From contig CAXXFF010000002.1 in assembly GCA_963676835.2 (NCBI GenBank), positions 544,001 through 608,000 of the forward strand: 64,000 nucleotides of DNA. Direction: 5' to 3'. Position 1 is the stretch's first letter; each line of letters starts with the position of its first letter. A model generated the notes under the pieces. It did no database searches and had not been told where the DNA came from. It worked only from the letters and a program-made list of their open reading frames with translations. Shown here in pieces: positions 14,922 through 29,566 of the stretch. The translations under genes were made by a program, and so were the position numbers. Source of the stretch: Marispirochaeta sp. GTDB taxonomy: Bacteria > Spirochaetota > Spirochaetia > JC444 > Marispirochaetaceae.

Positions 14922-15416
14922 CTATAGCTTCTTCTCCATACAATAAAACGGTTGTTCCCTAAACGGAAATGTCACTTCTCCGATATTCGCATACCCTTTA
15001 CTCAAATACAATTTCTGCGCAACCTTATTCGCACTGTATACATCCAATCTTACACTACTGTACTTATTCTTTCTGGCATAAGCTTCAATGAACTCCATCA
15101 GTCTACCTGCGATACCCCGGCCCTGAAAATCAGGATGAACTGCCAGCCTGTGTATAATCAGGTTCTTCCCATCCGCATCGCCCCACTTGACTTGCCCATA
15201 TTCTATTGGCTGTTCTTCGTTGATCGCAAAATAGGCCTCACATAAGTCCTCTTCTTTAATTACATATCCATATCCATTTTTTATATCTTCTTCAACAATC
15301 GCATGAGTGGGATAGTGTTCATTCCATTGATAAATCCCCTGTGATTCCATGGAAGAAATGCATTCAGAAAACATGCTCATAATTATAAGCAGATCTTGTA
15401 CTTGTGCTATGGTCAT
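14922..15416 (-). CDS. GNAT family acetyltransferase
   Basis: GIYQWNEHYP, IHRLAVHPDFQGRGIA, RLDVYSAN, LYLSKGY. Confidence 0.9.
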   Translation of the reverse strand: MTIAQVQDLLIIMSMFSECISSMESQGIYQWNEHYPTHAIVEEDIKNGYGYVIKEEDLCEAYFAINEEQPIEYGQVKWGDADGKNLIIHRLAVHPDFQGRGIAGRLMEFIEAYARKNKYSSVRLDVYSANKVAQKLYLSKGYANIGEVTFPFREQPFYCMEKKL

Positions 15417-15544
15417 TCCTATTAATCACCTCACTTGTTTCTTTTTTATACTTTTTATTGAAACACAGGGAAAACTGCACCTGTCATCCCGTGAAGTTGT
15501 TAAAGAAAATATGGGTAGAGCTGTATATCCCCTTTTTTGTATTG

Positions 15545-15997
15545 TTAATTTATGCCTTCAGCAGAATTATAATAATTGCTCACACTTTCTTTTACAAATA
15601 GATACCAATAGATGACTAAACTAAACAGAAGTGAAGGGAGTATATTTATAAGAGTGAGCAACTCATTCATTCTCAGAACCGGTAAAATAATTGATGGAAT
15701 CATATAACTACACATCATCAACAACCTTCCCCATTTTATTCTATTCAAAATTGTATACCCGCAAATTGGACAGATTATACCTGCAGCAACAAAAATCCAG
15801 GGGGCTTTTGTTTTCATAAAATCACCATAAGTCATTGCAACACCATTTACAGTGTAATTCATCCCGGGAAAAGGGATGACAGCTATTATAAACAGACTGA
15901 AACAGAGAAAACATAATGCCACTACACGCAATACAAAAGGCATAGATGCAATCTTTGATCTAAACGCCTGTATATATTCAATAATTTTGAAATACAT
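15545..15997 (-). CDS. Hypothetical membrane protein
   Basis: About four TM segments, ends YWYLF...SNYY. Confidence 0.65.
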   Translation of the reverse strand: MYFKIIEYIQAFRSKIASMPFVLRVVALCFLCFSLFIIAVIPFPGMNYTVNGVAMTYGDFMKTKAPWIFVAAGIICPICGYTILNRIKWGRLLMMCSYMIPSIILPVLRMNELLTLINILPSLLFSLVIYWYLFVKESVSNYYNSAEGIN

Positions 15998-16033
15998 TTT
16001 TCTCCTCGAACCAATTCTTTAGTTAATTTCATA

Positions 16034-16109
16034 CAATGTCCCACGAATAGGTGAAGTTGCTATGGGAAATTTGGGGGAAGTCACAAGCGAGACCGTGCAT
16101 TCGCTGTTG
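16034..16109. repeat. Degenerate attC-like site S9
   Basis: CAAT-GTCCC-ACGAATAGGTGAAGTTG...GCATTCGC-T-GTTG. Confidence 0.6.
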
Positions 16110-16130
16110 TATGATGTGCTTGTTAGTGTG

Positions 16131-16598
16131 CTATGCCTTTTCCAACATCCTCTTTAAATCATCCATGTCAGCAAGAAAAGCCTTCTTCATCCCACCCACC
16201 ATAAATGAAAAGAGTAAATTGAGAAGTTTCGCAGTAAAAGTAGTTGCTCTTCCGGAAAACTCAATTGAAACTCCGGTTTTACCGCCTTCATCAATAAAAC
16301 GCCATTCTGTAGCGTAGTGCATTCCGTTTGACTGCGCCTCTTCTTTGAAATAGTCGGGAGGGTTGAATTGAGTTATTTCCATTGTTTCGCTGGATTCTTT
16401 TCCAAACATGACTCGGGTTTCTTTAAACTTACTCCCTATGCCGACTTCTCCAGGTGTCAAGATTTCAATACTTTTAATGGCCTTTACGTTGTTTGCTAAA
16501 TTTTTCAGGTCAGAAAACGCATTGAATACTTCAGCCTTTTCTGCATTGATTGTGCCATGGGCTTTAACTTTCATTCTGGTCTCCTTTGCTATTTTCAA
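16131..16598 (-). CDS. SRPBCC family protein (cassette gene)
   Basis: GEVGIGSKFKETRVMFGKE...DMDDLKRMLE. Confidence 0.85.
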   Translation of the reverse strand: MKIAKETRMKVKAHGTINAEKAEVFNAFSDLKNLANNVKAIKSIEILTPGEVGIGSKFKETRVMFGKESSETMEITQFNPPDYFKEEAQSNGMHYATEWRFIDEGGKTGVSIEFSGRATTFTAKLLNLLFSFMVGGMKKAFLADMDDLKRMLEKA

Positions 16599-16670
16599 AC
16601 TTAACTATAGGTATTTCTATAGAATTCAAAACTGCTTTCAGCTGTTCTGCCGAACACCGGCAGTTTCATA

Positions 16671-16738
16671 CAACATTCCGCGAAGTTGTCGAAAGCAATT
16701 TGGGTGACGCCGCAGGCGGAACCGCTTATTTGCTGTTA
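16671..16738. repeat. Partially deleted attC-like site S8
   Basis: CAAC-ATTCC-GCGAAGTTG...GCAATTTGGG...GGAACCGCTTATTTGC-T-GTTA; left arm appears shortened. Confidence 0.7.
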
Positions 16739-16759
16739 GGTGACGTTCTGTTTTTGCAC

Positions 16760-17059
16760 TTAAGATACTTTCACTTGTTGAATTTTATCGAGTTCTATTT
16801 CAATTTTTGGACGTTCAATACGCAATTCATACTCATCCTGAATTCCAAGCCAAAAATCTGGAGAGTTTCCAAAATACTTAGCTAAGCGAAGAGCAGTGTC
16901 TGCAGTAATCTTACGATTTCCCTTTAGAATTTGAGAAATTCTAGTCGCTGGCATATTTGTATCTTTTGCTAACCGATATGCACTTATGTTCATTGGACCA
17001 AGAAATTCTTCTAGGAGAATTTCTCCTGGAGTTATTACTGGGATTTTTTCCATACTCAC
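16760..17059 (-). CDS. higA: HigA family antitoxin
   Basis: TPGEILLEEFL, HTH, ITADTALRLAKYFGNSPDFWLGIQ. Confidence 0.93.
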   Translation of the reverse strand: MSMEKIPVITPGEILLEEFLGPMNISAYRLAKDTNMPATRISQILKGNRKITADTALRLAKYFGNSPDFWLGIQDEYELRIERPKIEIELDKIQQVKVS

Positions 17060-17343
17060 CTCTTATGGTAATCAGTTATCTCGACTTCGGTGGCTGTTCC
17101 ATTATTCCAATAAAAACAAATACGCCACTGAGAATTAATCCTTATGCTGTACTGCCCTTTTCTATCCCCTGAAAGCTGCTCAAGTCTGTTACCCGGCGGT
17201 ACCCTAAGATCATTGATGTCTTTTGATCGATGTATAAGTATTAACTTTCTTAAGCCTATTCTTTGCATTTCTTTCGGGAAATGTTTTGAATAGGTTCCAT
17301 TCCATATTTTCTTTGTGTCTTTATCTTTAAAAGATTCTATCAC
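17056..17343 (-). CDS. higB: HigB (RelE-like) toxin
   Basis: MIESFKDK...DLRVPPGNRLEQLSGDRKGQYSIRINSQWRICF. Confidence 0.93.
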   Translation of the reverse strand: MIESFKDKDTKKIWNGTYSKHFPKEMQRIGLRKLILIHRSKDINDLRVPPGNRLEQLSGDRKGQYSIRINSQWRICFYWNNGTATEVEITDYHKR

Positions 17344-17349
17344 TAATCA

Positions 17350-17378
17350 ATAGTAACGCTTCTCGTTACTAACGTCAA
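17350..17378 (-). promoter_or_regulatory. higBA promoter with overlapping palindromic operator
   Basis: TTGACG-17-TACTAT on the minus strand; palindrome TAGTAACG-N5-CGTTACTA at 17351-17371; -10 box 6 nt from the GTG start (probably leaderless). Confidence 0.7.
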
Positions 17379-17407
17379 GCGTTAATATATTTAAACAGAA
17401 TGTCATT

Positions 17408-17483
17408 TAACGTTCCGCGAATATATGAAGTTGGCCGAAGGCCAATCTTTGTGAAGCGCAGCGAAACCGCCTATTCGCTGTTA
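17408..17483. repeat. attC-like site S7
   Basis: TAAC-GTTCC-GCGAATA...TATTCGC-T-GTTA with inner hairpin TTGGCCGAAGGCCAA. Confidence 0.8.
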
Positions 17484-17532
17484 TATGTCGTTTGACTGTA
17501 ACCGTCAATTAAACCTCACCCAGAGAAAAAAA

Positions 17533-19053
17533 TCAGAGGGAAATATTCCATGGCAGCAATTTTTCCCAGTTATCAGATTCATTCATGAGTGGAGCTTCCT
17601 CAAAAACGCGTCTCAGGTAGTCGTTCGGGTTCACATTATTTTGTTTGGCTGTCTCAATCAGTGAATACATGGCACAGGAACTTTCTGCCCCCTTTGGACT
17701 ACCGGAAAATAACCAGTTCTTTCGGCCCAGAACAAACGGCCGAATAGCCTGTTCCGCGCTATTGTTGTCAGGTGTCAGATAAGGAGAATCGAGGTAGTGT
17801 ACCAGTTTCTCCCATTCGTTCAAGGTGTACTGAATTGCTTTCCCAAGCAATAACGAAGGAGGAACCTGCTGACTGCGTTTTTCAAGCCAGGTTCTAAACT
17901 TCTGCAAAACCGGTTCCGCCTGAGATTTGCGCTGGTCAACAAACTGGTCTTCGGGCAATTCCATACTGCGAAGACGCTCTTCAATTCCATACAGTTTCCT
18001 GATGGCATTCAATGCTTCCTGTGCACTTGCTGCTTTCTTCGAGGCCTTTGCAGCTTCATGAAACTTTCGCCGAACATGGGCCATGCAGCCGACATGGACT
18101 ATCTGTTCATTCCCCGCCAGGGCTGTACGATACGCATCATAGCCGTCGGTCTGTAAAAAGCCGCTGAATCCATCGAGAAGTTCTTTAATATGCCGGGACC
18201 CGCGGGTTTCCCGGTATGAATAAAGCAATCCCGGGTTTTCCGGAGGGCCGCCGCGGGCAAGCCACATATAGGATTTCGCCGTGTCAGGGCGTTCCGGTTC
18301 TCCGTGTACCTGGACCGGGGTTTCATCCATGTTGATGACCGGCCCTGACCGGATATGCGTTTTCAGTGTTTCTATTAACGGTTCAATTTTATCAAACGCC
18401 GCCTGCTGCCAGTTGCTCATGTTCTGACGGCTTATGTGGATGCCGATTCTTTCAAACCGTTTCTCCTGCCGGTAATAGGGCAGATGATCGACAAACTTGT
18501 TCACTATGATGAAGGAGATCAATCCTGGCGTTACAATGCTTTTAGGGATAATACTTGCAGGGGGATCAGCAACCCTTACCGCCGGCTTCTCTTCATCCCC
18601 GGAGCCTTCACAGTTTTTACAGGCATACTTGGGGCGGATAATCCGTTCCACCCACATCTTCGGGGGGATTACCTGTAAGCGCTCGCTGGTCTCTTCGCCG
18701 ATACGAACCAGCGCATGGCCGCAGGCACACTGTTTTTCTTCTTCGGGAATATCAATGATGATCTCATCCCGGGGAAGGCTTTCATCAATTGGTTTTCTGC
18801 CGGATTTCCTGCGGGGATGGGACTGAACTGGTACGGAAGTCTCTGATGCATCGTTCTCCGAAGTACCATTCTCTTCAAGTCCGAACAACAGCGGTTGATA
18901 CTCATCCAGTTGTTCTTTTTCACTTTTACGGCCAAATTTCTGAAGAAGAAGCAATTTGTACTGCTCTTCCAAGGCACCATAACGCTGCTCCCAGGAACTA
19001 TTAAGTTCGTGGATATAGTCCTGTACTTCCCTGGGAAGTTCTGTAACATCCAT
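17533..19053 (-). CDS. tnpC: IS66 transposase TnpC (copy A)
   Basis: FGRKSE, CACG, HLPYYRQ, MDETPV, QTDGY, CMAHVRRKF, DNNSAEQAIRP, GRKNWLF. Confidence 0.95.
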   Translation of the reverse strand: MDVTELPREVQDYIHELNSSWEQRYGALEEQYKLLLLQKFGRKSEKEQLDEYQPLLFGLEENGTSENDASETSVPVQSHPRRKSGRKPIDESLPRDEIIIDIPEEEKQCACGHALVRIGEETSERLQVIPPKMWVERIIRPKYACKNCEGSGDEEKPAVRVADPPASIIPKSIVTPGLISFIIVNKFVDHLPYYRQEKRFERIGIHISRQNMSNWQQAAFDKIEPLIETLKTHIRSGPVINMDETPVQVHGEPERPDTAKSYMWLARGGPPENPGLLYSYRETRGSRHIKELLDGFSGFLQTDGYDAYRTALAGNEQIVHVGCMAHVRRKFHEAAKASKKAASAQEALNAIRKLYGIEERLRSMELPEDQFVDQRKSQAEPVLQKFRTWLEKRSQQVPPSLLLGKAIQYTLNEWEKLVHYLDSPYLTPDNNSAEQAIRPFVLGRKNWLFSGSPKGAESSCAMYSLIETAKQNNVNPNDYLRRVFEEAPLMNESDNWEKLLPWNISL

Positions 19054-19114
19054 GCTAATAAGAATTCTAGCATGCCGTACATTCTATGTAAATTCCTTTA
19101 CACCAATAATATGC

Positions 19115-19462
19115 TTACGAAACCCGCGAATATTCCAAACTAGTATGTTCATTCCAAAAATCGATGCCTTTCAACAGCATCGATAGCTGTTCCGGGGTAA
19201 TCATACGTGCAGTTTCTTCGGTTACGGGCCAGGGAAACTTATGCTTTTCCAGTTTCTTCTGCCAGAGACAGAATCCGTTCTTGTCCCAGTAGAGGGCTTT
19301 CATAATTCGTCGTTCGCGGTTGCAGAACAGAAACAGATTGCCGCTTAACGGATTTTCATTCATATAGTCCTGCACCATGACAACTAAGCCGTTGATTGCT
19401 TTACGCATATCAGTGATGCCTGGCCGGATAAATATCTGTACCGCTGATAAATCTGGGGTCAT
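19115..19462 (-). CDS. tnpB: IS66 accessory protein TnpB (copy A)
   Basis: TDMRKAINGL, LFLFCN, KALYWDKNGFCLWQKKLE. Confidence 0.95.
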   Translation of the reverse strand: MTPDLSAVQIFIRPGITDMRKAINGLVVMVQDYMNENPLSGNLFLFCNRERRIMKALYWDKNGFCLWQKKLEKHKFPWPVTEETARMITPEQLSMLLKGIDFWNEHTSLEYSRVS

Positions 19463-19658
19463 TCATAAACCCTCAAGGCTGTTAATACTGCTTTAAGCTG
19501 GTCATGGTTTGCTGTTACCGGCAGAGTAATAACAATATCGTGCAACTTTATGGTAATGGTTTCTTTTTTGGATAAATGATGAAAAGAGCTTTTTACTGGT
19601 ATGAACCCGGCTGCTGCTGTTTCAGAAGCTAATCCTGTTTGTACGGCACGTTTCCTTT
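19459..19658 (-). pseudogene. tnpA: 3' part of copy-A IS66 tnpA, interrupted by copy B (5' part at 22043-22172)
   Basis: Near-identical to the 3' part of 21630-21959; ends at the TTTCCTTT duplication. Confidence 0.85.
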
Positions 19659-19693
19659 GTAACCGTCAATTAAACCTCACCCAGAGAAAAAAA

Positions 19694-21223
19694 TCAGAGG
19701 GAAATATTCCATGGCAGCAATTTTTCCCAGTTATCAGATTCATTCATGAGTGGAGCTTCCTCAAAAACGCGTCTCAGGTAGTCGTTCGGGTTCACATTAT
19801 TTTGTTTGGCTGTCTCAATCAGTGAATACATGGCACAGGAACTTTCAGCCCCCTTTGGACTACCGGAAAATAACCAGTTCTTTCGGCCCAGCACAAATGG
19901 CCGGATGGCCTGCTCCGCGCTATTGTTGTCCGGCGTCAGATAAGGCGAATCAAGGTAGTGTACCAGTTTCTCCCATTCGTTCAAGGTGTACTGAATTGCT
20001 TTCCCAAGCAATAACGAAGGAGGAACCTGCTGACTGCGTTTTTCAAGCCAGGTTCTAAACTTCTGCAAAACCGGTTCCGCCTGAGATTTGCGCTGGTCAA
20101 CAAACTGGTCTTCGGGCAATTCCATACTGCGAAGACGCTCTTCAATCCCATACAGTTTCCTGATGGCATTCAATGCTTCCTGTGCACTTGCTGCTTTCTT
20201 CGAGGCCTTTGCAGCTTCATGAAACTTTCGCCGAACATGGGCCATGCAGCCGACATGGACTATCTGTTCATTCCCCGCCAGGGCTGTACGATACGCATCA
20301 TAGCCGTCAGTCTGTAAAAAGCCGCTGAATCCATCGAGAAGTTCTTTAATATGTCGGGACCCGCGGGTTTCCCGGTATGAGTAAAGCAATCCCGGGTTTT
20401 CCGGAGGGCCGCCGCGGGCAAGCCACATATAGGATTTCGCCGTGTCTGGGCGTTCCGGTTCTCCGTGTACCTGGACCGGGGTTTCATCCATGTTGATGAC
20501 CGGCCCTGACCGGATATGCATTTTCAGAGTCTCAATTAAAGGTTCAATCTTTTCATACGTCATCTGCTGCCAGTTGCTCATGTTCTGACGGCTTATGTGG
20601 ATGCCGATCCGCTCAAATCGTTTCTCCTGCCGGTAATAGGGCAGATGATCTACAAATTTATTCACTATGATGAAGGAGAGCAATCCAGGCGTTACAATGC
20701 TTTTAGGGATGATACTTGCAGGGGGGGCAGCAACCCTTACTGCCGGCTTCTCTTCATCCCCGGAGCCTTCACAGTTCTTGCAGGCATACTTGGGACGGAT
20801 AATCAGTTCTACCCACATCTTCGGGGGGATTACCTGTAAGCGCTCGCTGGTCTCTTCGCCGATACGAACCAGCGCATGGCCGCAGGCACACTGTTTTTCA
20901 TCTTCGGGAATATCAATGATGATCTCTTCCCGGGGAAGGCTTTCATCAATTGGTTTTCTGCCGGATTTCTTGCGGGGATGGGACTGAACTGGTACGGAAG
21001 TCTCTGATGCATCGTTCTCCGAAGTACCATTCTCTTCAAGCCCGAACAACAGCGGTTGATACTCATCCTGTTGTTCTTTTTCACTTTTACGGCCAAATTT
21101 CTGAAGAAGAAGCAACTTGTACTGCTCCTCCAAGGCACCGTAGCGATGTTCCCAGGAACTGTTTGCTGTCTCAAGAGAGTGAATGTAGTCTTGTACTTCC
21201 TTCGGAAGGGCTGCAACATCCAT
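19694..21223 (-). CDS. tnpC: IS66 transposase TnpC (copy B)
   Basis: Near-identical to 17533-19053 with a different N-terminus. Confidence 0.95.
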   Translation of the reverse strand: MDVAALPKEVQDYIHSLETANSSWEHRYGALEEQYKLLLLQKFGRKSEKEQQDEYQPLLFGLEENGTSENDASETSVPVQSHPRKKSGRKPIDESLPREEIIIDIPEDEKQCACGHALVRIGEETSERLQVIPPKMWVELIIRPKYACKNCEGSGDEEKPAVRVAAPPASIIPKSIVTPGLLSFIIVNKFVDHLPYYRQEKRFERIGIHISRQNMSNWQQMTYEKIEPLIETLKMHIRSGPVINMDETPVQVHGEPERPDTAKSYMWLARGGPPENPGLLYSYRETRGSRHIKELLDGFSGFLQTDGYDAYRTALAGNEQIVHVGCMAHVRRKFHEAAKASKKAASAQEALNAIRKLYGIEERLRSMELPEDQFVDQRKSQAEPVLQKFRTWLEKRSQQVPPSLLLGKAIQYTLNEWEKLVHYLDSPYLTPDNNSAEQAIRPFVLGRKNWLFSGSPKGAESSCAMYSLIETAKQNNVNPNDYLRRVFEEAPLMNESDNWEKLLPWNISL

Positions 21224-21285
21224 ACTGAAAAAAATTCTAGCATACAGCTCTTTCTCTGTAAATTCCTTTACACCATTAAAATGCT

Positions 21286-21633
21286 TTAAGAAACACGGGA
21301 ATATTCCAAAGTAGTATGTTCATTCCAGAAATCGATGCCTTTCAACAGCATCGATAGCTGTTCCGGGGTAATGGCAAGAGCATCTTCTTCAGTTACGGGC
21401 CAGGGGAATTTATGCTTTTCCAGTTTCTTCTGCCACAGGCAGAAACCATTCCGGTCCCAATACAATGCCTTCATGATTCGTCGTTCGCGGTTGCAGAACA
21501 GAAACAGATTGCCGCTTAACGGATTTTCATTCATATAGTCCTGCACCATGACAACTAAGCCGTTGATTGCTTTACGCATATCAGTGATGCCTGGCCGGAT
21601 AAATATCTGTACGGCTGATAAATCTGGGGTCAT
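21286..21633 (-). CDS. tnpB: IS66 TnpB (copy B)
   Basis: As copy A. Confidence 0.95.
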   Translation of the reverse strand: MTPDLSAVQIFIRPGITDMRKAINGLVVMVQDYMNENPLSGNLFLFCNRERRIMKALYWDRNGFCLWQKKLEKHKFPWPVTEEDALAITPEQLSMLLKGIDFWNEHTTLEYSRVS

Positions 21634-21959
21634 TCATAAACCCTCAAGGCTGTTAATACTGCTTTTAGCTGGTCATGATTTGCTGTTACCGGCAGAGTAA
21701 TAACAATATCGTGCAACTTTATGGTTATGGTTTCTTTTTCGGATAAATGATGAAAAGAGCTTTTTACTGGTATGAACCGGGCTGCTGCTGTTTCAGAGCC
21801 TATTCCGGTTTGTACGGCACGTTTCCTTTCGGCTTTTTTCCAGCTGTAAAACGTTGTGGGTGGTATTTCGTGCTGCCGGCAATACTCCTGCCCGCTTAAC
21901 CCGCTTTTTTCCCAATTTCTAAGATGTTCACACTGCTGTTCCCGGTTATATTTGACCAT
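21630..21959 (-). CDS. tnpA: IS66 TnpA (copy B)
   Basis: WEKSGLSGQEYCRQHEIPPTTFYSW HTH; ATGA overlap with tnpB. Confidence 0.9.
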   Translation of the reverse strand: MVKYNREQQCEHLRNWEKSGLSGQEYCRQHEIPPTTFYSWKKAERKRAVQTGIGSETAAARFIPVKSSFHHLSEKETITIKLHDIVITLPVTANHDQLKAVLTALRVYE

Positions 21960-22042
21960 GCGATTCCTCCATTAAGGGAGGATTGTAGGGCATTCATTGA
22001 TGTCGGCATAAGGTGGGGTTTAATTGACGGTTACTTTCCTTT

Positions 22043-22172
22043 CGGCTTTTTTCCAGCTGTAAAATGTTGTGGGTGTTATTTCGTGCTGCCGGCAATACTC
22101 CTGCCCGCTTAACCCACTTTTTTCCCAATTTCTAAGATGTTCACACTGCTGTTCCCGATTATATTTGACCAT
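22043..22172 (-). pseudogene. tnpA: 5' part of interrupted copy-A tnpA
   Basis: Duplicates 21830-21959 with a few substitutions. Confidence 0.85.
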
Positions 22173-22232
22173 GCGATTCCTCCATTAAGGGAGGATTGTA
22201 GGGCATTCATTGATGTCGGCATAAGGTGGGGT

Positions 22233-22652
22233 TTAATTGACGGTTACGTTTGACTCTTGCACCCAGTTTTCAATGATCAGTTTGGGTACTCTCTCAAATT
22301 CCTTTACATTATTTGTAACAAGACATAAGTTTCTTGTTACACACTGTGCGGCTATTTGGAGATCATATGGCCCAATTGGGGTACCTAATTTATTTAGATA
22401 AGCACGTATATACCCGAAGTTCTCAGCGTCTAATTCACTAAAAGGGATAATTTCAAAAGGAGACAGAAATCCATATAGTAATTCCCTATTTCGATCAGGA
22501 TATAAACTTTTTGCTATTCCATACTCCAGTTCAGCTATAGTAATTGAAGAAAGAGCAATATTAAACAACTCTTCATCCTCTATCCTGATTTGAAGTTCGG
22601 GATATTTCTTTTTCATTAAATAAATACAAATATTTGTATCAAGTAAATACAC
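22233..22652 (-). CDS. vapC: VapC PIN-domain toxin (last residues now supplied by the IS66 end)
   Basis: YLLDTNICIY, ITIAELEYG, GTPIGPYDLQIAA, LVTNNVKEFERV. Confidence 0.93.
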   Translation of the reverse strand: MYLLDTNICIYLMKKKYPELQIRIEDEELFNIALSSITIAELEYGIAKSLYPDRNRELLYGFLSPFEIIPFSELDAENFGYIRAYLNKLGTPIGPYDLQIAAQCVTRNLCLVTNNVKEFERVPKLIIENWVQESNVTVN

Positions 22653-22882
22653 TATATACTTTCCCGTTCTTGCATTTCGGGCTGCTCTCTCCCTTCCGAG
22701 AATAAATCATCGGAAAACATATTTATACTATTTCTAAAAGAAGACCATAAATCATCTTTTGAAGTTAGAATAATAGAGCTTCCTACTTTATGTATAAGGA
22801 GCTCCGAATCAGAAATCGCATATTCTTTTGGGATTCTAATAGCTTGGCTATTGCCACTTCGGAATACTTTTACCGTTTGCAT
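22652..22882 (-). CDS. vapB: VapB antitoxin (AbrB/MazE fold)
   Basis: KVFRSGNSQAIRIPKEY, REQP...QERE. Confidence 0.92.
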   Translation of the reverse strand: MQTVKVFRSGNSQAIRIPKEYAISDSELLIHKVGSSIILTSKDDLWSSFRNSINMFSDDLFSEGREQPEMQERESI

Positions 22883-22902
22883 ATTTTATGCCTCCTGCAT
22901 CA

Positions 22903-22931
22903 AGTATATACCTATGTGTATACATTTTCAA
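22903..22931 (-). promoter_or_regulatory. vapBC promoter
   Basis: TTGAAA-17-TATACT on the minus strand, followed by an AGGAGG RBS. Confidence 0.65.
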
Positions 22932-22946
22932 GAGTCAAATGACATA

Positions 22947-23035
22947 TAACGTCCCGGGGTTATGTGACGTACGGCGTAAGCCGTATGTGGCGCAGCCCGA
23001 GGAGCGTATAGCGACGAAGCACATAGCCCCTGTTA
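22947..23035. repeat. attC-like site S6
   Basis: TAAC-GTCCC-GGGGTTATGTG...CACATAGCCCC-T-GTTA. Confidence 0.88.
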
Positions 23036-23052
23036 TACGACGTTTCATATAT

Positions 23053-23460
23053 CTACCTTTGAGCAATTATTTCTTTTACAAACTCTTTTGAAAAATCGTA
23101 TTGCTCAGAGTTTTCCACCTCAAATTTTATATTATATCCTTCCGAATATTTTCTGGCGGTTGATACCATTTCTTTATATTTTACCATATCCTCTTTAGAC
23201 TCAAAATATTCTTTTTCATTTTTTCTAATAGCCATACTCAGAATAAAGGAATCGTTCAACGGAATAAAATAGTAAAGTGCTTTTTTCTTATCTTCTACTT
23301 TTTCCATCCAGCCACTCGATCTTGAATGATTCCAGGTGTGTTGAAAATCTTTTGTCAATTTATTTAAATCTTGATAATATTCGGAAACAACACCGAGTGC
23401 TTCATTTATTTTTTCGTTTGTAGGTTCATTCGATTTTTCTTTAAACGGTCTTTCACTCAC
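23053..23460 (-). CDS. DUF3788-like protein (cassette gene)
   Basis: EPTNEKINEALG...WNHSRSSGW...KKKALYY...KYSEG. Confidence 0.7.
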   Translation of the reverse strand: MSERPFKEKSNEPTNEKINEALGVVSEYYQDLNKLTKDFQHTWNHSRSSGWMEKVEDKKKALYYFIPLNDSFILSMAIRKNEKEYFESKEDMVKYKEMVSTARKYSEGYNIKFEVENSEQYDFSKEFVKEIIAQR

Positions 23461-23494
23461 TTTTTACTCCATTTTAGATATGTGATATGTCGTA

Positions 23495-23634
23495 TAACGT
23501 GATGCGAATATGCGAAGATATTCGCTGAAATTATACTATCATGTTTGTCCATTAGAACAAACATGATTTTTGTAAAATGCAAGAGCGGATATTTTGAGCG
23601 AAGGCTGAAAGCCGTAGCCGCATATTCGCAGTTA
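23495..23634. repeat. attC-like site S5
   Basis: TAAC-GTGAT-GCGAATATGCG...CGCATATTCGC-A-GTTA. Confidence 0.88.
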
Positions 23635-23659
23635 GTAGAAGTGTTTAATTTTTTTATAA

Positions 23660-24112
23660 CTATAATTCGTTTGTTCTACCAAAAGCAAAAGTTGCTTTTG
23701 ATGTGTATTTTGCAGAAAACCCTTTCATTTCTGAATCCATGGCTTGATCTAACATTATTATTGCATTTGCACCTTTTGTTTTAGCATAATCCTTCAATAA
23801 TTTATAATACTCAGAAGCATCTGGTTGCTTATAATTCATATTGAACCCTGATAATTTGTTCGTTGTATTTATTGTGATCATTCCAATTTGATTGTATTTA
23901 AAAGAAGGTGGTATTAACATATTAGAATGATATGCAACGGCTGAATCAACCGCTAATGCAGGATAAACTTTACCTGTTGGTATATACAATTCTTCTAAAT
24001 CAGTCATTGTATAATCTGATACATTACTTTTTTCTTTGTTTGTAGATGTTGTTACACATCCCAATAATGTTAATAAAAGTACTAAAATTAAAATTAACTT
24101 TCTCATGGTCAC
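23660..24112 (-). CDS. Putative lipoprotein (cassette gene)
   Basis: MRKLILILVLLLTLLGC lipobox; AKTKGANAII. Confidence 0.75.
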   Translation of the reverse strand: MTMRKLILILVLLLTLLGCVTTSTNKEKSNVSDYTMTDLEELYIPTGKVYPALAVDSAVAYHSNMLIPPSFKYNQIGMITINTTNKLSGFNMNYKQPDASEYYKLLKDYAKTKGANAIIMLDQAMDSEMKGFSAKYTSKATFAFGRTNEL

Positions 24113-24188
24113 TCCTTAATTATTAATAAATTATTTATAGCAAAATTTCTTCTTAAAATCAATATTCTATAATTTTAAACACTTCTAC

Positions 24189-24442
24189 TAACGTTCCGCG
24201 AATATATGAATTTTCTATCAAAAACACGGGTTTATTTTCAATATAACGCCGTTTTCTGCTGCAGACCGTGAAATTGGCGCAGAATGTGCGTAAGCAGATT
24301 CTGTGACAATAGGGCTGACAGTAGCAAAACATGGTTATATTGTCGTTTATTATAGCATGTAAATTGTTTATTTCGGAACCAATTCTTTTTGATAGAAATT
24401 TGGCGAAGCCCGGAGCGAAGCGGAGCATATCATTCGCTGTAA
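24189..24442. repeat. attC-like site S4 (254 bp, right core reads GTAA)
   Basis: TAAC-GTTCC-GCGAATATATG...CATATCATTCGC-T-GTAA. Confidence 0.8.
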
Positions 24443-24473
24443 AACGAAGTTTTCTTGGGGGCGCGTACAATAA

Positions 24474-24890
24474 TTAATGCTGATGTACGAAGCTGTTAAT
24501 AAAATTTCCATCCATATCAAAAACAATGTCGAATGTATCAGGATCAATTCCATACCCAGTCCACCAACCTATTGAATATAATAATATATCTCTCTCTTCT
24601 TCATAATCATTGATAAAGGCATCCTCTGGTTCTCCTAAGAGTTCAATTGTTTCTAGTTTATTTAATTTTTTCTCATTCAAAATACTTTGTAGTGATTCTA
24701 CCATTTTCCCGCGATCATTATCGGTGCCCCAGTTTCCAGCATTTTCCTTCCAAACCACTTCATTAAAAGGGAGATCATCGAAAATATTTCCACCTTTTGC
24801 AATGTAGGAGACACAACTAGAAAAAATTAGAGTTGCGAAGAATATCAGAAAAACTGAAATGTTGTTCCTATGCGTAAAGATCGTTTTCAT
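24474..24890 (-). CDS. Putative lipoprotein (cassette gene)
   Basis: LIFSSC lipobox; RGKMVESL...ELLGEPE. Confidence 0.75.
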   Translation of the reverse strand: MKTIFTHRNNISVFLIFFATLIFSSCVSYIAKGGNIFDDLPFNEVVWKENAGNWGTDNDRGKMVESLQSILNEKKLNKLETIELLGEPEDAFINDYEEERDILLYSIGWWTGYGIDPDTFDIVFDMDGNFINSFVHQH

Positions 24891-24921
24891 TTTGAAAAAT
24901 ATCCCCCAAGAAAATTTTGTT

Positions 24922-25006
24922 TAACGTTCTGACAATATATGAAGTCTACCACGGAGTGGGAGATTTGGCGAAGCCCGAAGCGAAGCGGAGCATATATTGT
25001 CTGTTA
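24922..25006. repeat. attC-like site S3
   Basis: TAAC-GTTCT-GACAATATATG...CATATATTGTC-T-GTTA. Confidence 0.9.
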
Positions 25007-25063
25007 GAAGTAGTTACATCCTGCCATTGCATAATAAATAAACCGAAAGGAAAACACTAAGAT

Positions 25064-25531
25064 TTAATACAGTGGTTCAAACTGCTTATTCTCGGGATTC
25101 CAGAAATATACACGAGCATTATTAATGAAGTTTTTCCCTTCATTTGTGTAGACTGATAACTTTAAAGTTATATCGTCTCCTATTTCAATTTTATACCCAT
25201 AGAAGACTGAATCTCGACGCATTGGCACTTTGTGAGGATCTTTGCTCCAATAGTCTGTAATCATCTCTTTCTCAATTCTAAAAACTTCATGAATAGATCT
25301 GGAGCTCGTAGAAAGGATTAGCATTTGGTCAAAAAAAGTTTGACTATCGTCAATGTAGTGGAATCCGAAATATAAACCCTGAGGTTCGAAGGAGGTGATA
25401 ATGAACTCTTTTTCATTAAAAAAAGATTTCATTTCATCGTCAATTGACTCAGAGAATGAAAAATATGAAAAACCTAAAAGAAAAACTAGCGTGATGAAAT
25501 ATTTTTTTGACATGTACATCTCCATAACCAA
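25064..25531 (-). CDS. Hypothetical exported protein (cassette gene)
   Basis: Signal-peptide-like MSKKYFITLVFLLGFSYFSFS. Confidence 0.7.
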   Translation of the reverse strand: MVMEMYMSKKYFITLVFLLGFSYFSFSESIDDEMKSFFNEKEFIITSFEPQGLYFGFHYIDDSQTFFDQMLILSTSSRSIHEVFRIEKEMITDYWSKDPHKVPMRRDSVFYGYKIEIGDDITLKLSVYTNEGKNFINNARVYFWNPENKQFEPLY

Positions 25532-25553
25532 TTGAAAAGGATGTAATTACTTC

Positions 25554-25637
25554 TAACGTTCCGGGTTTATATGACGTTTTTGCAACGCAAAAATGTGGCG
25601 TAGCCCAAGCCGAAGGCGCAGCATATAAACCCTGTTA
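25554..25637. repeat. attC-like site S2
   Basis: TAAC-GTTCC-GGGTTTATATG...CATATAAACCC-T-GTTA. Confidence 0.9.
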
Positions 25638-25660
25638 TACGATGGTTTTTGGTTCAGTTG

Positions 25661-25975
25661 TCAGGCCTTCTGAATTTTCCAAACTGAATCCTTTAATTCC
25701 CTATATGCTTCCATACCAGGACTGAGATCAGAAATATCATTTATTGATGAATCAATATTCAAAGCTTCTTGCATACTGATCACACGGCCATCTTCTGTAT
25801 TATTAGTTGTTCCACAAAAAAATCCCCAAGAATGATCATCCTCATAGTGCACAACTTTTAAAATGGGATATCCTTCTTCAAGCACTTGCTTTGTGGTAAT
25901 TGCAGCAGTATTTGGCGATTGATCAAAATTCCATTTATCCATCAGCATACCATTTCTATAAAATAAGTTTTCCAA
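25661..25975 (-). CDS. DUF2185/Imm33-like small protein (cassette gene)
   Basis: AAITTKQVLEEGYPILKVVHYEDDHSWGFFCG...IDSSINDISDL. Confidence 0.7.
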   Translation of the reverse strand: MENLFYRNGMLMDKWNFDQSPNTAAITTKQVLEEGYPILKVVHYEDDHSWGFFCGTTNNTEDGRVISMQEALNIDSSINDISDLSPGMEAYRELKDSVWKIQKA

Positions 25976-25986
25976 AAACTATCGTA

Positions 25987-26131
25987 TAACGTCTCGCCAA
26001 TATGCGAAGTTGCCTGGCACCCCATCGGGGTTGATAAATGCTGGGAAAATTGTAGCACGGTTTTTCCGGCATTTGTCAAAGGCAATTTGGGTGCAGTGAG
26101 CAAAGCGAACGGAACCGCATATTGGCTGTTA
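25987..26131. repeat. attC-like site S1
   Basis: TAAC-GTCTC-GCCAATATGCG...CGCATATTGGC-T-GTTA. Confidence 0.9.
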
Positions 26132-26336
26132 TGCGAAGGAATCAGACTTTTATTCCTGCTCACACCAGCGTCGTTCTTGCCGGGTGCGACTGCACCTTAA
26201 TGAAGCCTTCCACTTGGACGGTCTTTATTACGCATTGCGTATTAATTCCCGGCCCGCGCAACTCTTTAAAAAGCAGGAATTACGACACCATTTTTAATGG
26301 TGCGACTATATATCCCCACTGATTCTTTCGCATAAC
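26128..26336. other. ORF-less structured first cassette
   Basis: Bounded by an 18-bp inverted repeat like the other cassettes; no fitting ORF; several internal inverted repeats. Confidence 0.7.
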
Positions 26337-26352
26337 TACACTTATCCGCATT
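26325..26352. other. Candidate attI-like insertion site (11-6-11 core)
   Basis: CTTTCGCATAA-CTACAC-TTATCCGCATT; last TAAC of the array, not followed by a site body, adjacent to the integrase 5' end. Confidence 0.65.
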
Positions 26353-26373
26353 GTACATTAAGTTCCCCATTAT

Positions 26374-27222
26374 ATGAAGCAACATAATACTTCTGCGGTT
26401 ATTATAAGTATGAGCACTACATATATTGAGAAAATAGCCAGAGAAATGCAGGATCATATGATCTTCCGTAACTATTCACGCCACAGCATTACAGCATACA
26501 TTTCTCACATTCGATCATTTCACAACTTTTGCAGCAATACCAGTGAATCCAACCGCGAAAAACGTATCATTGCGTATATAAATCAATGTCCCCACTCAAG
26601 CAGGACAGTGGCGCGGTCGGCCTTGAAATACCTCTATGTAAATATCCTGAAAATCCCGGTTTCCATTTTAGATGTTAAGGTGCGTCATAGCCAAAAAATC
26701 CCCCCGGTTTTATCACGAGCCGAGGCTATCAGTCTTATCAACTCCATTACAAATTGTAAGCACCGTCTTATGATCGCCCTTTTGTATGGATCAGGATTAA
26801 GGGTAAGCGAAGTTGTCAATTTGAAAGTTGGAGACGTACTTCTTTCGCGTCAAAAGCTTCATATCAGGCAGGCGAAGAACAAAAAAGACAGGATTGTAGT
26901 CCTGTCCGCAGAATTGATGCCCCAGATAATTAACGATATAGCCGGCAGATCACCGAAAGAGTGGCTGTTCTTAAATCAATCTGGAAAGAAATATGCTATC
27001 CGGACAGTTCAGGCTGTTTTCAAAAAAGCCCTTCACAAGTGCAATCTCAACAGAAATGCCAGCTGTCATTCCCTCCGCCATTCGTTTGCAACATCACTGC
27101 TGGAAAATGGTGTGGACATAAGGCTTATACAGGCTCAACTTGGGCACTCAAATCTCAAAACAACCATGCGCTATACAAGGATTTCCGGAGCTATGATTGA
27201 AAATCTTCAATCTCCTTTATAG
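26374..27222 (+). CDS. Integron-like tyrosine recombinase (start may be 26410)
   Basis: N-terminal RNYSRHSITAY SAM-like domain; KIPPVLSRAE; YGSGLRVSE, AKNKKDR, HSLRHSFATSLLENG, LGHSNLKTTMRYT. Confidence 0.92.
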   Translation: MKQHNTSAVIISMSTTYIEKIAREMQDHMIFRNYSRHSITAYISHIRSFHNFCSNTSESNREKRIIAYINQCPHSSRTVARSALKYLYVNILKIPVSILDVKVRHSQKIPPVLSRAEAISLINSITNCKHRLMIALLYGSGLRVSEVVNLKVGDVLLSRQKLHIRQAKNKKDRIVVLSAELMPQIINDIAGRSPKEWLFLNQSGKKYAIRTVQAVFKKALHKCNLNRNASCHSLRHSFATSLLENGVDIRLIQAQLGHSNLKTTMRYTRISGAMIENLQSPL

Positions 27223-27385
27223 CAATTATTACGCAATGCGCAAAATATGCTTCTGTATACAAATCTTTTTGCATAGAGTACAATAAGGTTGAATTAATAC
27301 CAGAAAATAATACTGCCTTAGGCCTGCCGAAGTTTACCTGTTTATTTAACCCTAATGGTGGTAAATTTAGTGAGAGAGTTTTTTT

Positions 27386-29566
27386 ATGCTTTCACGCAAA
27401 GTGATTGTCACATGCTGTTCTCTTTTCTGTGTACTCTCTATATTCACATACGCACAGAGTACCGCAGTAAATCTTGACGAAATGTATGCTTACCCTCTGG
27501 GGTTTTCCGTGGATATCTCAAGTTATTCGCCTGTTGTGGCCCTGGGCACAGATTTTGATTACACCTTCAGTGTTAACGATTTCTCAGCAAAAGCTACATA
27601 TCCATTGCCGCAGCATCCGGTCTGGCAGCCCTATCTTTCTCTGGGCCTGATTTCCTACACATCAACAGATACCGAAAACGAAGCTCAGGCAGATCAATTT
27701 AACCATAATCAGGCATATCTTTCCGGTGGAATTTCCTATCTTACAAAGATGTCAAAGCAGATGGAAATCGGAGTGAGTACCGGCCTTGGGTTGAGTCAAT
27801 CCTATTTTTCAGAATTAGGTGGATCAACGGATACTGTCGGGCAGATGAATCTGCTTGCAGATTTAAACGGCCACCTTGGCCTGAATGTATCTTATAATCT
27901 GCATCTGGCCTTCGAACCGCGAATCCGCTATACAAAAACATTCGGACTTTTAGAGCGCTTTAACGGCGTAACCTTCGGTGTTGGGTTTACCGGCCAATAT
28001 CGTCTTGGAGAAGATCCGGACTCTCCCAAAGCTGAAATTAAGAGTATCCGCTTTCTTGACGGAAAAATCTCCAATATATTTGCAGCTCTTCAGAGTTTCT
28101 ATGTAAACAACAGCATCGGGTCAGTTGCATTCGTAAATGAAGACAAATTTCCCATAACCAACGTGGAAGTCTCTTTTTATCAGGCCGGGTTTATGGATAC
28201 CCCTACACTGCTTAAATCCTTCGATAAAATCGATTCAAAAGAAGAACAGTCTCTCGATATCTTCGCCGCCTATAACACCCGGGTATTTGAAACCGCTGGA
28301 ATCACACCACTTACCGGTGAGCTGGTTGTAGCATATACAAGCCGGGGGCGCAGCTATACTCAGAAACTCCCTCTTACCTATGATATGTACGACAAAGAGG
28401 CCCTTTCCTGGGATGACACACGTAAAGCCGCGGCCTTTGTTACTCCCGCAGACAGTGCCCTCAGAAACTACAGCAGCTATGTTCGCCAAATTTCCAGAGA
28501 ACGAAATATTACCGGCTACAGCGAAGAGATGCAGACCGCCATGCAGATCTATTACGGCCTTAAGGAACTCGGACTTATTTACCAGCTCGATCCAACCAGC
28601 CCCTTTGATCAGGCCCAGGAAAACACCGGCGTAATCGATGCAGTCAGTATTCCGCGAAACACCCTTAAACGACTTACCGGTGACTGTGACGATCTATCTG
28701 TACTCTATTCAAGTCTGCTTGAATCCGCTGGAGTTGAAACCGCCTTTGTAACTGTACCGGGACATATATACGTGGCGTTTAATACAACCGTACCTTCACG
28801 GGATTATCAACTGCTCCATCCATCCCAGAAGATGTCCATAAATATAAAAAATCAGCTCTGGGTTCCTGTGGAAGTAACCATGGTTGGCACCGACGATTTC
28901 TTAACCGCCTGGCGAACCGGTATTCAGCAGTTTACATCTCTGGACAGCAATCCTGATCAGCGGGAAATTATCAATATCCGCCAGTCCCAACAGACTTACC
29001 GGGCAGTGGGGCTTCAGGAAACCGACCTGGGCCTGCAGTACGGAGACTCCCAGACAGTAGCCCGGAACTTTTCCCGGGATGTAAATCAGGTAATCAACGA
29101 AATTATCCAGTCTTACAGTACCATTGCTGAGGAGACAAATAACAAAAGCGGTTTCAACCGGCTGGGAATTGTCAGCGCCATGTTCCGCCGCTACAGCGAA
29201 GCAGAACAGGCATTTAACCGAGCCCTGGCTCTGGACCGGAATTTTCTTTCCGCCCGGATAAATCTTGCAAATGTCTACTTTCAGCGCAATGAATATCAGA
29301 ATGCTCTGCGTATTCTCCATGCGGTGGAAAAGGAATATATTGCCAGCGGCAGAGAACAGTCCCGCAGTCTGCAGATTGTGCTTCTGAACATTTCCCGCTG
29401 TTACTATTCGCTGGAAAACTTCGATATGGCCGAAGATTATCTGGCAAGGCTTAAAGAACTGAACCCGGATCTTGCAAATCAGAACTCGTATCTTGCAGCC
29501 CAGAACGGATCCCGGGCTTCCCGCGGTGGAGCCGATTCGGGTGTTTTGTTTGTGGAGGAAGATTAA
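27386..29566 (+). CDS. Exported protein with beta-strand-rich N-terminus, transglutaminase-like domain and C-terminal TPRs
   Basis: Signal peptide; GDCDDLSVLYSSLLESAG...PGHIY...WVPVEVT; TPR-like FNRLGIV...AEQAFNRALALD. Confidence 0.75.
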   Translation: MLSRKVIVTCCSLFCVLSIFTYAQSTAVNLDEMYAYPLGFSVDISSYSPVVALGTDFDYTFSVNDFSAKATYPLPQHPVWQPYLSLGLISYTSTDTENEAQADQFNHNQAYLSGGISYLTKMSKQMEIGVSTGLGLSQSYFSELGGSTDTVGQMNLLADLNGHLGLNVSYNLHLAFEPRIRYTKTFGLLERFNGVTFGVGFTGQYRLGEDPDSPKAEIKSIRFLDGKISNIFAALQSFYVNNSIGSVAFVNEDKFPITNVEVSFYQAGFMDTPTLLKSFDKIDSKEEQSLDIFAAYNTRVFETAGITPLTGELVVAYTSRGRSYTQKLPLTYDMYDKEALSWDDTRKAAAFVTPADSALRNYSSYVRQISRERNITGYSEEMQTAMQIYYGLKELGLIYQLDPTSPFDQAQENTGVIDAVSIPRNTLKRLTGDCDDLSVLYSSLLESAGVETAFVTVPGHIYVAFNTTVPSRDYQLLHPSQKMSINIKNQLWVPVEVTMVGTDDFLTAWRTGIQQFTSLDSNPDQREIINIRQSQQTYRAVGLQETDLGLQYGDSQTVARNFSRDVNQVINEIIQSYSTIAEETNNKSGFNRLGIVSAMFRRYSEAEQAFNRALALDRNFLSARINLANVYFQRNEYQNALRILHAVEKEYIASGREQSRSLQIVLLNISRCYYSLENFDMAEDYLARLKELNPDLANQNSYLAAQNGSRASRGGADSGVLFVEED

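Follow-up and report, generated by a model that had tools for sequence, protein, structure and literature searches.

Arrays of gene cassettes are tied, in the available text of two papers on integrons, to integrases of the IntI type, which are defined by an additional domain of ~35 residues (PMC4889954, PMC9668308); the second of these, on archaeal integrons, applies the same IntI-domain criterion there (PMC9668308). Two tenets go with this picture, namely that only recombinases with the IntI-specific domain run such arrays, and that the attC sites are delimited by R boxes of 7 bp, with a self-pairing of at most 9–11 nucleotides (nt). Here, we describe an array that challenges both of them. 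It lies in a stretch of 64,000 nt from Marispirochaeta sp. (contig CAXXFF010000002.1, positions 544,001 to 608,000; the whole stretch is referred to as the window, with positions counted from its first letter), where nine attC-like sites form an array spanning 16033-26336. Beside them, a tyrosine recombinase of 282 residues (26374..27222, plus strand) is the presumed cassette integrase; it is IntI/Xer-like and has no IntI-specific extra domain. Because its recombinase lacks this domain, the element is not a canonical integron, but an integron-like variant outside the current integron definition. In the window and in 22 further loci, arrays stand beside such a domain-less Xer-like integrase, and a site appears to be complete only when the two ends of one and the same cassette meet.

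In many respects, the window resembles classical integrons. Both have the integrase beside the insertion point and mostly single-gene, promoterless-looking cassettes on one strand; both have sites that are imperfect palindromes with AAC at one end and GTT at the other, whose L arms covary around a variable loop; and in both, a cassette opens with bases complementary to those at which its own site starts. In their cargo, too, they are alike, with toxin-antitoxin pairs and small unknown proteins, as well as GNAT genes in the decayed stretch left of the array. However, classical integrases possess the IntI-specific domain, whereas the window integrase does not, and the cognate pairing of classical cassettes extends over 9–11 nt, as given in the accessible part of the source (PMC2727003), versus 16–24 nt in the window. 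Moreover, position 11 of the window's cassette ends, counted from the GTT, is a fixed G-T mispair, unlike in classical integrons, and where classical sites have two single extrahelical bases, those of the window have an asymmetric spacer of 5 and 1 nt, and those of its relatives one of 4 and 2 or 5 and 3 nt.

Xer-type recombination offers two other points of comparison. The CTX phage integrates at dif by Xer recombination on folded single-stranded DNA (ssDNA). The window would resemble this system in that a domain-less Xer-type enzyme would act on a hairpin mimicking a two-arm core site, with one strand exchanged and the resolution left to replication, but it differs in that a single phage at a chromosomal dif stands against an array of many cassettes with a dedicated integrase. 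Read by eye, the 3' half of all eight window sites consists of an arm, a 6-nt spacer and a second arm, e.g. ACCGCATAT / TGGCTG / TTATGCGAAGG, and these spacers vary except for the CTG adjoining the crossover. In its general layout, this arrangement recalls the Xer core. The pdif modules of Acinetobacter plasmids, in turn, are built on double-strand XerC/D sites of fixed sequence. Like the window's cassettes, they are genes bracketed by inversely oriented Xer-type sites, but they have neither covarying hairpin sites nor module-specific 19-nt ends.

Finally, the 'reverse' integrons of Treponema and other spirochaetes come from the same phylum as the window, and the integrase likewise points toward the array in nine of the related loci (L061, L079, L084, L095, L102, L103, L110, L111 and L132). 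They are reported to have a true IntI and attC sites of 63-132 nt, and the available text of the sources does not mention long cognate ends (PMC3607928, PMC4889954); in the accessible part of the Treponema study, treponemes are the only spirochaetes with integrons (PMC3607928). Unlike theirs, the window integrase is not an IntI and diverges from its array. More generally, we found no description of long cognate ends, of a mispair at position 11 or of arrays run by a domain-less integrase in the available main texts of the literature searched, supplements excepted (PMC3607928, PMC7439510, PMC4889954, PMC2727003, PMC9668308).

Pairing between the two ends of a cassette

On the plus strand, each site starts with AAC and a 5-nt spacer and ends with a 1-nt spacer and GTT; in between, the complementary arms L'' and L', in this order, flank a variable loop. 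The nine sites (16033-26130) form a cluster of imperfect palindromes of the type R''-L''...L'-R' with AAC/GTT termini; they were located with nhmmer arm profiles and by reading the sequence. L'' and L' are complementary inside each site and divergent among sites (e.g. GACAATATATG with CATATATTGTC and GGGTTTATATG with CATATAAACCC), and since these inner arms vary between the sites yet covary within each of them, the sites are built to fold. Between them lie short cassettes, designated c0 (distal) to c8 (attI-proximal), with every cassette ORF on the minus strand.

A previous reading of the window, made from its sequence alone (the sequence-only reading), had reported that every cassette carries a long terminal inverted repeat of its own, extending beyond a GTT/AAC core. 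The eight pairs of left and right ends that it listed were all recovered at the same coordinates and with the same scores, and the long end pairing of the window's cassettes is thereby confirmed as real. The word 'every' goes a little too far, as the long repeats are found in eight of the nine site-bounded cassettes and the distal c0 (16106-16674) pairs over 9 nt only; similarly, the GTT/AAC core is the general rule, from which the left end at 24439 departs by starting with GTA. That the repeats are specific to their cassettes is borne out as well. Cognate ends pair over 16–24 nt in the eight cassettes, and non-cognate ends over at most 12 nt within the array; when all left ends are set against all right ends (9 x 9), ends of different cassettes do not pair equally well, with 10–15 of 17 matches at positions 8-24 for the eight cognate pairs, and a mean of 5.9 and a maximum of 10 for the non-cognate ones. 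In other genome sequence, there are 8 unique pairs of such quality per 1 Mb, 0 of them in an array. A chance origin of the pairing was rejected, and shared ancestry of neighbouring cassettes was likewise rejected as the source of the matching ends.

A regularity absent from the sequence-only reading is a central single mismatch at position 11, which is found in seven of the eight listed pairs, where the left end has G and the right end, read as its reverse complement, has A. This corresponds to a G-T mispair on the plus strand and to an A-C mismatch on the coding strand. The only listed pair with G/G, i.e. with a perfect pair at this position, is that of c4.

To put these figures on an unbiased footing, we used a set of 29 cassettes that were delimited by their sites, not by their ends: nine from the window, 17 from G399, a complete genome with 18 nearly identical sites, and three from genome G044. 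At positions 13-18, cognate ends match in 93–97% of these cassettes, versus 22–34% for non-cognate ends of the same array; the cognate match then declines to 72% at position 19, 52% at position 20 and 34%, the background level, at position 21. Pairing over at least 16 nt is seen for 26 of the 29 cognate but only 5 of the 350 non-cognate combinations, position 4 matches in 100% of cognate versus 70% of non-cognate pairs, and 28 cassettes have G/A at position 11, the remaining one having G/G.

A larger set comprises 62 G/A pairs from 23 loci, namely the window and the 22 loci described below. It was preselected at a threshold of at least 13 of 15 matches, and only its results on length, diversity and position 11 are unbiased. 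The ends are 16–26 nt long in 61 of the 62 pairs, with a median of 19. Positions 1-4, 8, 11 and 12 are conserved (1.1–2 bits), positions 13-19 hold at most 0.2 bit, and no two of the 62 words at positions 12-19 are alike. Since the ends covary without sequence conservation, the pairing itself is under selection; the ends bear the signature of a helix maintained by compensatory changes, with a mispair at a fixed place and a length that varies little. As a search signature, it begins with GTTR, has G at position 8 and G/A at position 11, and continues with ~8 covarying pairs; it could delimit cassettes where current integron finders probably report an integrase-less cluster of sites at most.

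The covarying pairing also follows the polarity of its array. In all 23 loci, and in either orientation of the integrase, it is the integrase-distal end that has the G at position 11. The longest ORF is directed away from the integrase side in 54 of the 62 cassettes, and the G-T mispair is found on the strand opposite most cassette genes. Three cassettes with reversed ORFs (265, 297 and 827 residues) retain the polarity, and the mark at position 11 is thus a property of the site rather than of the gene or transcript.

The sequence-only reading had further supposed that an excised circle would rebuild an outer stem that is missing in the integrated state, and predicted folds agree with this. 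With DNA parameters and in silico circles cut at TAA|C, the predicted mean minimum free energy (MFE) is -37.9 kcal/mol for the cognate circle junction, -24.7 kcal/mol for the integrated site and -24.8 kcal/mol for 56 non-cognate joins. The outer stem of ~19 bp is rebuilt in 8 of 8 circles, with a ΔΔG of -5.8 to -17.4 kcal/mol, and non-cognate joins gain nothing. In the predicted circle fold, one continuous stem runs from the cassette-specific extension through the R box and a 4-nt bulge to the L box; the bulge, which comes from the 5-nt versus the 1-nt spacer, stands in place of two single bulged bases, and the fixed G-T mispair at position 11 would provide an alternative asymmetry. The plus strand is predicted to be more stable than the minus strand in 8 of 8 cases, by 1.3–13.3 kcal/mol. 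For a longer stretch of 3461 nt (22900-26360, plus strand), the MFE fold has six of six cognate stems formed across the genes, with 16–19 of 19 pairs, five of six L boxes folded locally and none of the six local R boxes formed. In the fold of a canonical array, local R boxes are formed in one of five cases on the plus strand and in none of five on the minus strand, and cognate pairings in two of four and one of four, respectively. Since this control is ambiguous, the whole-array fold is a mere pointer to a possible role in the integrated state.

The genome of the window (G000) also harbors a true integron (C3:3510-29042), which served as a control. Its IntI (C3:28113-29042) scores 355 bits against the integron integrase profile, and its 17 conserved sites, on one side of IntI, are of a different type and ~160-175 nt long. 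With a Xer-type array and a true integron in the same genome, two recombinase/site systems coexist in one cell. Treated like those of the window, 14 of the 16 cassettes of the true integron pair over 6–9 nt, and two copies of one small cassette over 15 nt with mismatches; at positions 8-24, the means are 6.3 matches for cognate and 4.6 for non-cognate ends. A second true integron, in genome G044, gave 8 and 11 nt for its two cassettes, as read from the sequence. For most classical cassettes, the available text of a published study describes a self-pairing past the 7-nt R boxes to 9–11 consecutive complementary nucleotides (Bouvier et al. 2009, PMC2727003). The baseline of 7 bp on which the sequence-only reading had relied for canonical cassettes is thus too low, and the 16–24 nt of the window amount to about twice the published length. 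Its proviso that canonical cassettes might routinely have equally long extensions is not borne out in the controls, as such extensions are missing from 14 of the 16 cassettes and from the two of G044. Further sites of the true-integron type are found elsewhere in G000, five or six on contig C4 (~241-245 kb) and one on C1.

The recombinase and the distribution of its arrays

Against the integron integrase model TIGR02249, the window recombinase scores 177 bits, below the cut-off of 265, and the match falls into two pieces, skipping profile positions 178-239. These missing positions are the IntI-specific domain, the additional domain near patch III, and the window enzyme therefore falls outside the definition of an integron integrase. 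Its best family is NF040815 (XerA-like) with 193 bits, again below the cut-off of 220, and the XerC and XerD models yield 132–142 bits versus cut-offs of ~330. Since all family scores remain below their cut-offs, the enzyme has a Xer-like build without being an orthologue of XerC, XerD or XerA. Alignment A1, of 13 proteins, shows the insert in a single member, the true IntI of the window genome; the window enzyme and 11 relatives lack it, and the catalytic residues R, K, H, R, H and Y are kept in all 13. The nine relatives that were scanned all score below the IntI cut-off and lack profile positions 180-239, and four of five array-bearing genomes have no IntI above the cut-off at all.

Homologues of the window enzyme (E ≤1e-40) occur in 100 of the 401 sampled genomes of the phylum. 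We scanned 20 spirochaete loci for GTT...AAC pairs 120-6000 nt apart with at least 13 of 15 matches at positions 4-19, position 11 being left out, and obtained 45 cognate pairs from 10 of these loci and the window. In the 10 spirochaete loci without the signature, a general inverted-repeat search returned only chance-level repeats of at most 16 nt. An alignment-based search of a species-genome collection with short enzymes yielded 80 loci, from Spirochaetota, Patescibacteria, Firmicutes, Bacteroidota, Ignavibacteriota, DPANN archaea and other groups, and cassettes of the window's kind were found in 12 of the 79 new ones. The signature is thus present in 23 loci from at least five bacterial phyla, and the integrases of these loci are 33–46% identical. 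A site finder based on a structural pattern (AAC, spacer, 8-9-mer ... reverse complement, spacer, GTT) was also tried and dropped, being noisy genome-wide and in AT-rich loci.

Within the genus, an orthologue of the window integrase is present in five of five congeners, with 50–71% identity, and one of them, the complete genome G402, has 10 consecutive window-type cassettes, 67-135 nt apart, all with G/A at position 11. The relatives have the site types of the window, but none of its cassette ORFs; since sites are shared and cassette ORFs are not, the cassette content appears to turn over. The type of the 143-nt site (25988..26130) is found with 71–87% identity in other genomes of the class. 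Taken with the type of the site at 25555-25636, it recurs at 71–91% identity in 9 of 40 other class genomes, and its long loop may contain a conserved element of its own. A single site in the G402 array (L150, on G402:C1, 9775-9906) has inner arms that match in only 8 of 11 positions, and its 3' arm agrees in 11 of 11 with the 5' arm of the site that follows; this mix of arms hints at an occasional exchange inside sites instead of at GTT.

A proposed site assembled from the two ends, and its alternatives

Given these results, we think it probable that each of the two repeats is one half of the basal stem in an enlarged attC-type site, belonging to an integron-like system with a Xer-like integrase that lacks the IntI-specific domain. 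The crossover would fall in the invariant GTT/AAC triplet, with ~19 bp of stem between it and the base of the folded hairpin in place of 7–11 bp; it is placed at the triplet because position 4 already covaries with the cassette. After integration, the integrase-proximal end of a cassette would carry ~19 nt of that cassette's site and the distal end the remainder, and the sites of the array, which pair over 4–9 nt, would be hybrids of unmatched halves because neighbours supply each half. The full stem would consist of a semi-conserved arm at positions 1-10, judged from its sequence the likely recombinase-binding arm, of the G-T mispair at position 11 and of ~8 arbitrary base pairs. It would form only between the two ends of one cassette, i.e. 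across a circle junction or, with the gene looped out, in an ssDNA array, and it may act in the circle, in the array or in both.

The strand with the G-T mispair would be the one that folds and recombines, that is, the plus strand, opposite the cassette genes, as in classical integrons, and the mispair would help to distinguish the two strands. The long stem would make the circle a better folded substrate than the sites of the array, which would favour capture or re-insertion and steady the array, and the varied 6-nt spacers with their constant CTG would fit the exchange of a single strand with resolution by replication. Such a system would provide a handle on the direction of the reaction (capture versus loss) and on strand choice in single-strand recombination, and the design of its sites could be turned into a tool for structure-specific recombination in which every cassette has a built-in, programmable 'address'.

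A number of points weigh against this reading. The canonical controls are small, comprising 16 and 2 cassettes and one published sentence, and the folding energies are predictions. The crossover is resolved to the level of the triplet and not to the exact phosphodiester, and the choice of the recombining strand is inferred by analogy and from the asymmetry between G-T and A-C. The cassette c0 and one cassette of G044, which pairs over 14 nt, fall short of the rule, and a signature cassette was not found in the fetched stretch of 10 of the 20 spirochaete and 67 of the 79 other loci, a stretch that often covered one side of the gene only. Finally, cognate stems displace the local R boxes in the predicted whole-array fold, which fits a role in the integrated state besides one in the circle.

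This last point leads to an alternative that we consider unlikely, although it is compatible with an enlarged attC site, namely that the pairing acts mainly in the integrated ssDNA array, where the ends would zip across the looped-out gene, so that the two crossover points of a cassette come to flank a single L-box hairpin, and thereby pre-assemble an excision synapse or withhold the R boxes, blocking excision. Both the 3461-nt fold, with all of its six cognate stems and none of its six local R boxes, and the uniform stem length with its median of 19 would suit this role, but MFE folds at the kilobase scale are weak evidence, the canonical array is ambiguous, and ssDNA stretches in the cell are short and coated with SSB. 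The uniform length of ~19 nt argues in turn against the idea that the repeats are a passive footprint of cassette making or repair, for instance of copying or correction across the circle hairpin, with no present function. While the genesis of cassettes is described as unsolved in the available text of one source (PMC4889954), and while the distal, presumably older cassettes (c0 and the decayed region) have lost the repeat, which simple age decay would also explain, a process that equalizes the arms would erase the G/A at position 11 that is fixed in 28 of 29 cassettes, and the rule is kept across several phyla despite integrases of only 33–46% identity. Since uniform length, the fixed G/A and conservation across phyla together point to purifying selection on the ends, we regard a mere footprint as improbable.

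Even less can be said for a stem at the level of RNA, formed between the 5' and 3' parts of each cassette transcript and controlling its stability, termination or translation, which we hold to be very improbable: the two ends do flank the ORFs, each in an untranslated part (5' or 3') of its cassette, but the coding strand of most cassettes has an A-C mismatch at position 11, the tolerated G-U would be antisense, the polarity follows the side of the integrase and is retained by the three reversed ORFs of at least 265 residues, and c8, which has no ORF, carries the repeat as well. Likewise, Rfam gave no match at E ≤0.1 over window 13000-27500. The conservation of positions 1-4, 8, 11 and 12, together with a TTATRYGAMG-like motif of the cassette ends that reappears, as read by eye, in the inner L'' arm of the sites, might suggest duplex protein-binding sites that are read by their sequence, like the terminal inverted repeats of transposons. 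We give this explanation the least credence of all, because positions 13-19 hold ~0 bits and yet match in 93–97% of cognate pairs, with 62 of 62 words different, and because the covariation of L'' and L' within the sites shows that they function as folded hairpins.

Returning to the enlarged attC-type site with its domain-less integrase, an extended form of this reading can be put forward, tentatively and with considerable doubt. In such 'self-synapsing' cassettes, the 19-bp stem and its mispair would replace the roles of the IntI-specific domain and the extrahelical bases. The cassette would close on itself in ssDNA, with its two crossover points meeting at one junction beside the L-box hairpin, and a plain Xer-type enzyme would excise or insert it by one-strand exchange, with the mispair marking the strand to be cut and the difference in stem stability between circle and array setting the direction. 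This would amount to a separate answer, perhaps an ancestral one, to structure-specific cassette recombination, and one that extends across many bacterial phyla and DPANN archaea.

Possible movement of cassettes and layout of the array

According to the sequence-only reading, each gene and its two differing ends behave as one unit. Indeed, the repeats belong to the cassette and not to the neighbouring site: c8 retains its full repeat (26319-26336) against the attI sequence, and a first cassette with the full repeat directly at the attI side is also found in G399, G044, G104 and G376, while a cassette shared between two genomes retains its ends. This shared cassette, with ends beginning GTTATTGGAAG, has its normal form in the G402 array and is 90% identical over 741 nt between that array and the true integron of the window genome; the homology extends ~39 nt and ~21 nt into generic site arms on the two sides. 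In the true integron, it is part of two identical 845-bp cassettes (G000 C3:23058-23902 and C3:26813-27657), where it is circularly permuted, with a 3' half-site, the cassette with both ends and a 5' half-site. The half-sites complement each other, in 11 of 11 L-box positions and in TTACC against GGTAA, and, joined in silico, are predicted to form one hairpin of -45.2 kcal/mol with an extended stem. The permuted copy has the form expected of a cassette that was once circular and then opened at a second site, which falls short of proof, the site arms being generic, and the 845-bp cassettes suggest a cassette with nested sites that can be captured by either platform. One of the two copies occupies the first position beside the attI of the true integron, and their genes look like a toxin-antitoxin pair. 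Near the start of the same contig, an end pair beginning GTTATGTTCA, with G/A at position 11, has its halves in opposite orientations (G000 C3:520-640, minus strand, and C3:3380-3470, plus strand), which may reflect an inversion or an assembly oddity.

Public-run material consisted of three runs from one study, as assembled contigs only. Four contig joints in it, the skips 23035>25553, 23036>26071 and 23043>25980 and a 242-nt back-step (24430>24189), were considered and rejected as products of excision or circle formation: each of them is carried by a single low-depth contig, the three skips have 23–34 nt on their shorter side, and the skip joints link site arms that recur in other cassettes of the sample. 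In run X1, the site at 22948-23034 is present at ~3x the depth of its flanks and joins other flanks at ~22947 and ~23036, just outside AAC and GTTA. Given the extra depth and the several alternative continuations, the site (22948-23036) appears to bound other cassettes in this sample.

At its distal end, the array closes with a degenerate attC-like site (16033..16108), the last recognisable one, in which AAT replaces AAC and the 3' arm gives a weak nhmmer match (16067-16108); this and all other sites are given on the plus strand. Further to the left, window 13300-16033 contains small minus-strand genes, three GNAT acetyltransferases among them, separated by short gaps that retain fragments such as GAAGTTG. 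These genes look like decayed cassettes without ends, whose pairing has been lost with distance from the integrase, and by eye there are no recognisable ends left of c0. The cassette c0 itself (16106..16674) has an SRPBCC/polyketide-cyclase-like ORF (16131-16598, minus strand) and, despite its short pairing, G/A at position 11.

A 66-nt site (16672..16737, located with arm profiles) separates c0 from c1 (16735..17411), which encodes a HigB-like toxin and an HTH antitoxin (16760-17343, minus strand). The ends of c1 (16735-16753 and 17393-17411) match in 16 of 19 positions, the mismatches being G/A at position 11 and two more G/A at positions 5-6. After a 74-nt site (17409..17482, arm profiles and fold) follows c2 (17480..22950), with a MazE-like antitoxin and a PIN toxin (22233-22882, minus strand). 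Two nested IS66-family elements (17498..22255, minus strand; the span includes one copy of the 8-bp duplication GTTTGACT) interrupt the left repeat of c2 (17480-17497 plus 22256-22259); they were recognized by the Pfam families DDE_Tnp_IS66, TnpB_IS66 and HTH_Tnp_1 and by repeated IS ends read from the sequence. Once the insertion and one 8-bp target duplication are removed, the left repeat pairs with the right one (22929-22950) in 21 of 22 positions, position 11 being G/A. The inner element has the target duplication TTTCCTTT and the outer one GTTTGACT; the outer element was inserted within positions 11-18 of the left repeat, and the stem of c2 should therefore be crippled.

The next two sites, of 87 nt (22948..23034) and 138 nt (23496..23633), were located with arm profiles and enclose c3 (23032..23498), which has a DUF3788 ORF (23053-23460, minus strand) and ends at 23032-23055 and 23475-23498 that match in 21 of 24 positions (position 11 G/A). 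The perfect pair of c4 (23631..24192; minus-strand ORF 23660-24112) lies at 23631-23648 and 24175-24192, with 18 of 18 matches. It is followed by a site of 252 nt with a long variable loop (24190..24441, arm profiles) and by c5 (24439..24925; minus-strand ORF 24474-24890), whose ends at 24439-24461 and 24903-24925 match in 20 of 23 positions (G/A). The left end of c5 is the one in which GTA replaces GTT (24439-24441), a change in the crossover triplet that should block this site. Beyond an 83-nt site (24923..25005, arm profiles and fold), c6 (25003..25557; minus-strand ORF 25064-25531) has ends at 25003-25022 and 25538-25557 with 19 of 20 matches (G/A), and beyond an 82-nt site (25555..25636, arm profiles and fold), c7 (25634..25990) has ends at 25634-25652 and 25972-25990 with 18 of 19 matches (G/A) and a minus-strand ORF (25661-25975) without a Pfam family. 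Across the array, Pfam thus recognizes the HigB-like toxin with its HTH antitoxin, the PIN toxin with its MazE-like antitoxin, SRPBCC and DUF3788, and four further small cassette proteins belong to no Pfam family.

The last site, of 143 nt, has the complementary L box GCCAATATGCG / CGCATATTGGC and borders c8 (26128..26336), a cassette of 209 nt with no convincing ORF, whose left end (26128-26145) matches the right end in 17 of 18 positions, with G/A at position 11. The AAC of this first cassette (26334-26336) is found 37 nt before the integrase start, and the junction region in between (26337..26373), unique sequence up to the ATG, would by its layout be attI-like; the attI side is laid out equivalently in L053, L045, L014 and L059. 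A 9-mer, CACTTATCC, is common to window 26339-26347 and to the true-IntI platform (G000 C3:27663-27671), in both cases just past the last AAC, and could be either a common feature of attI or due to chance.

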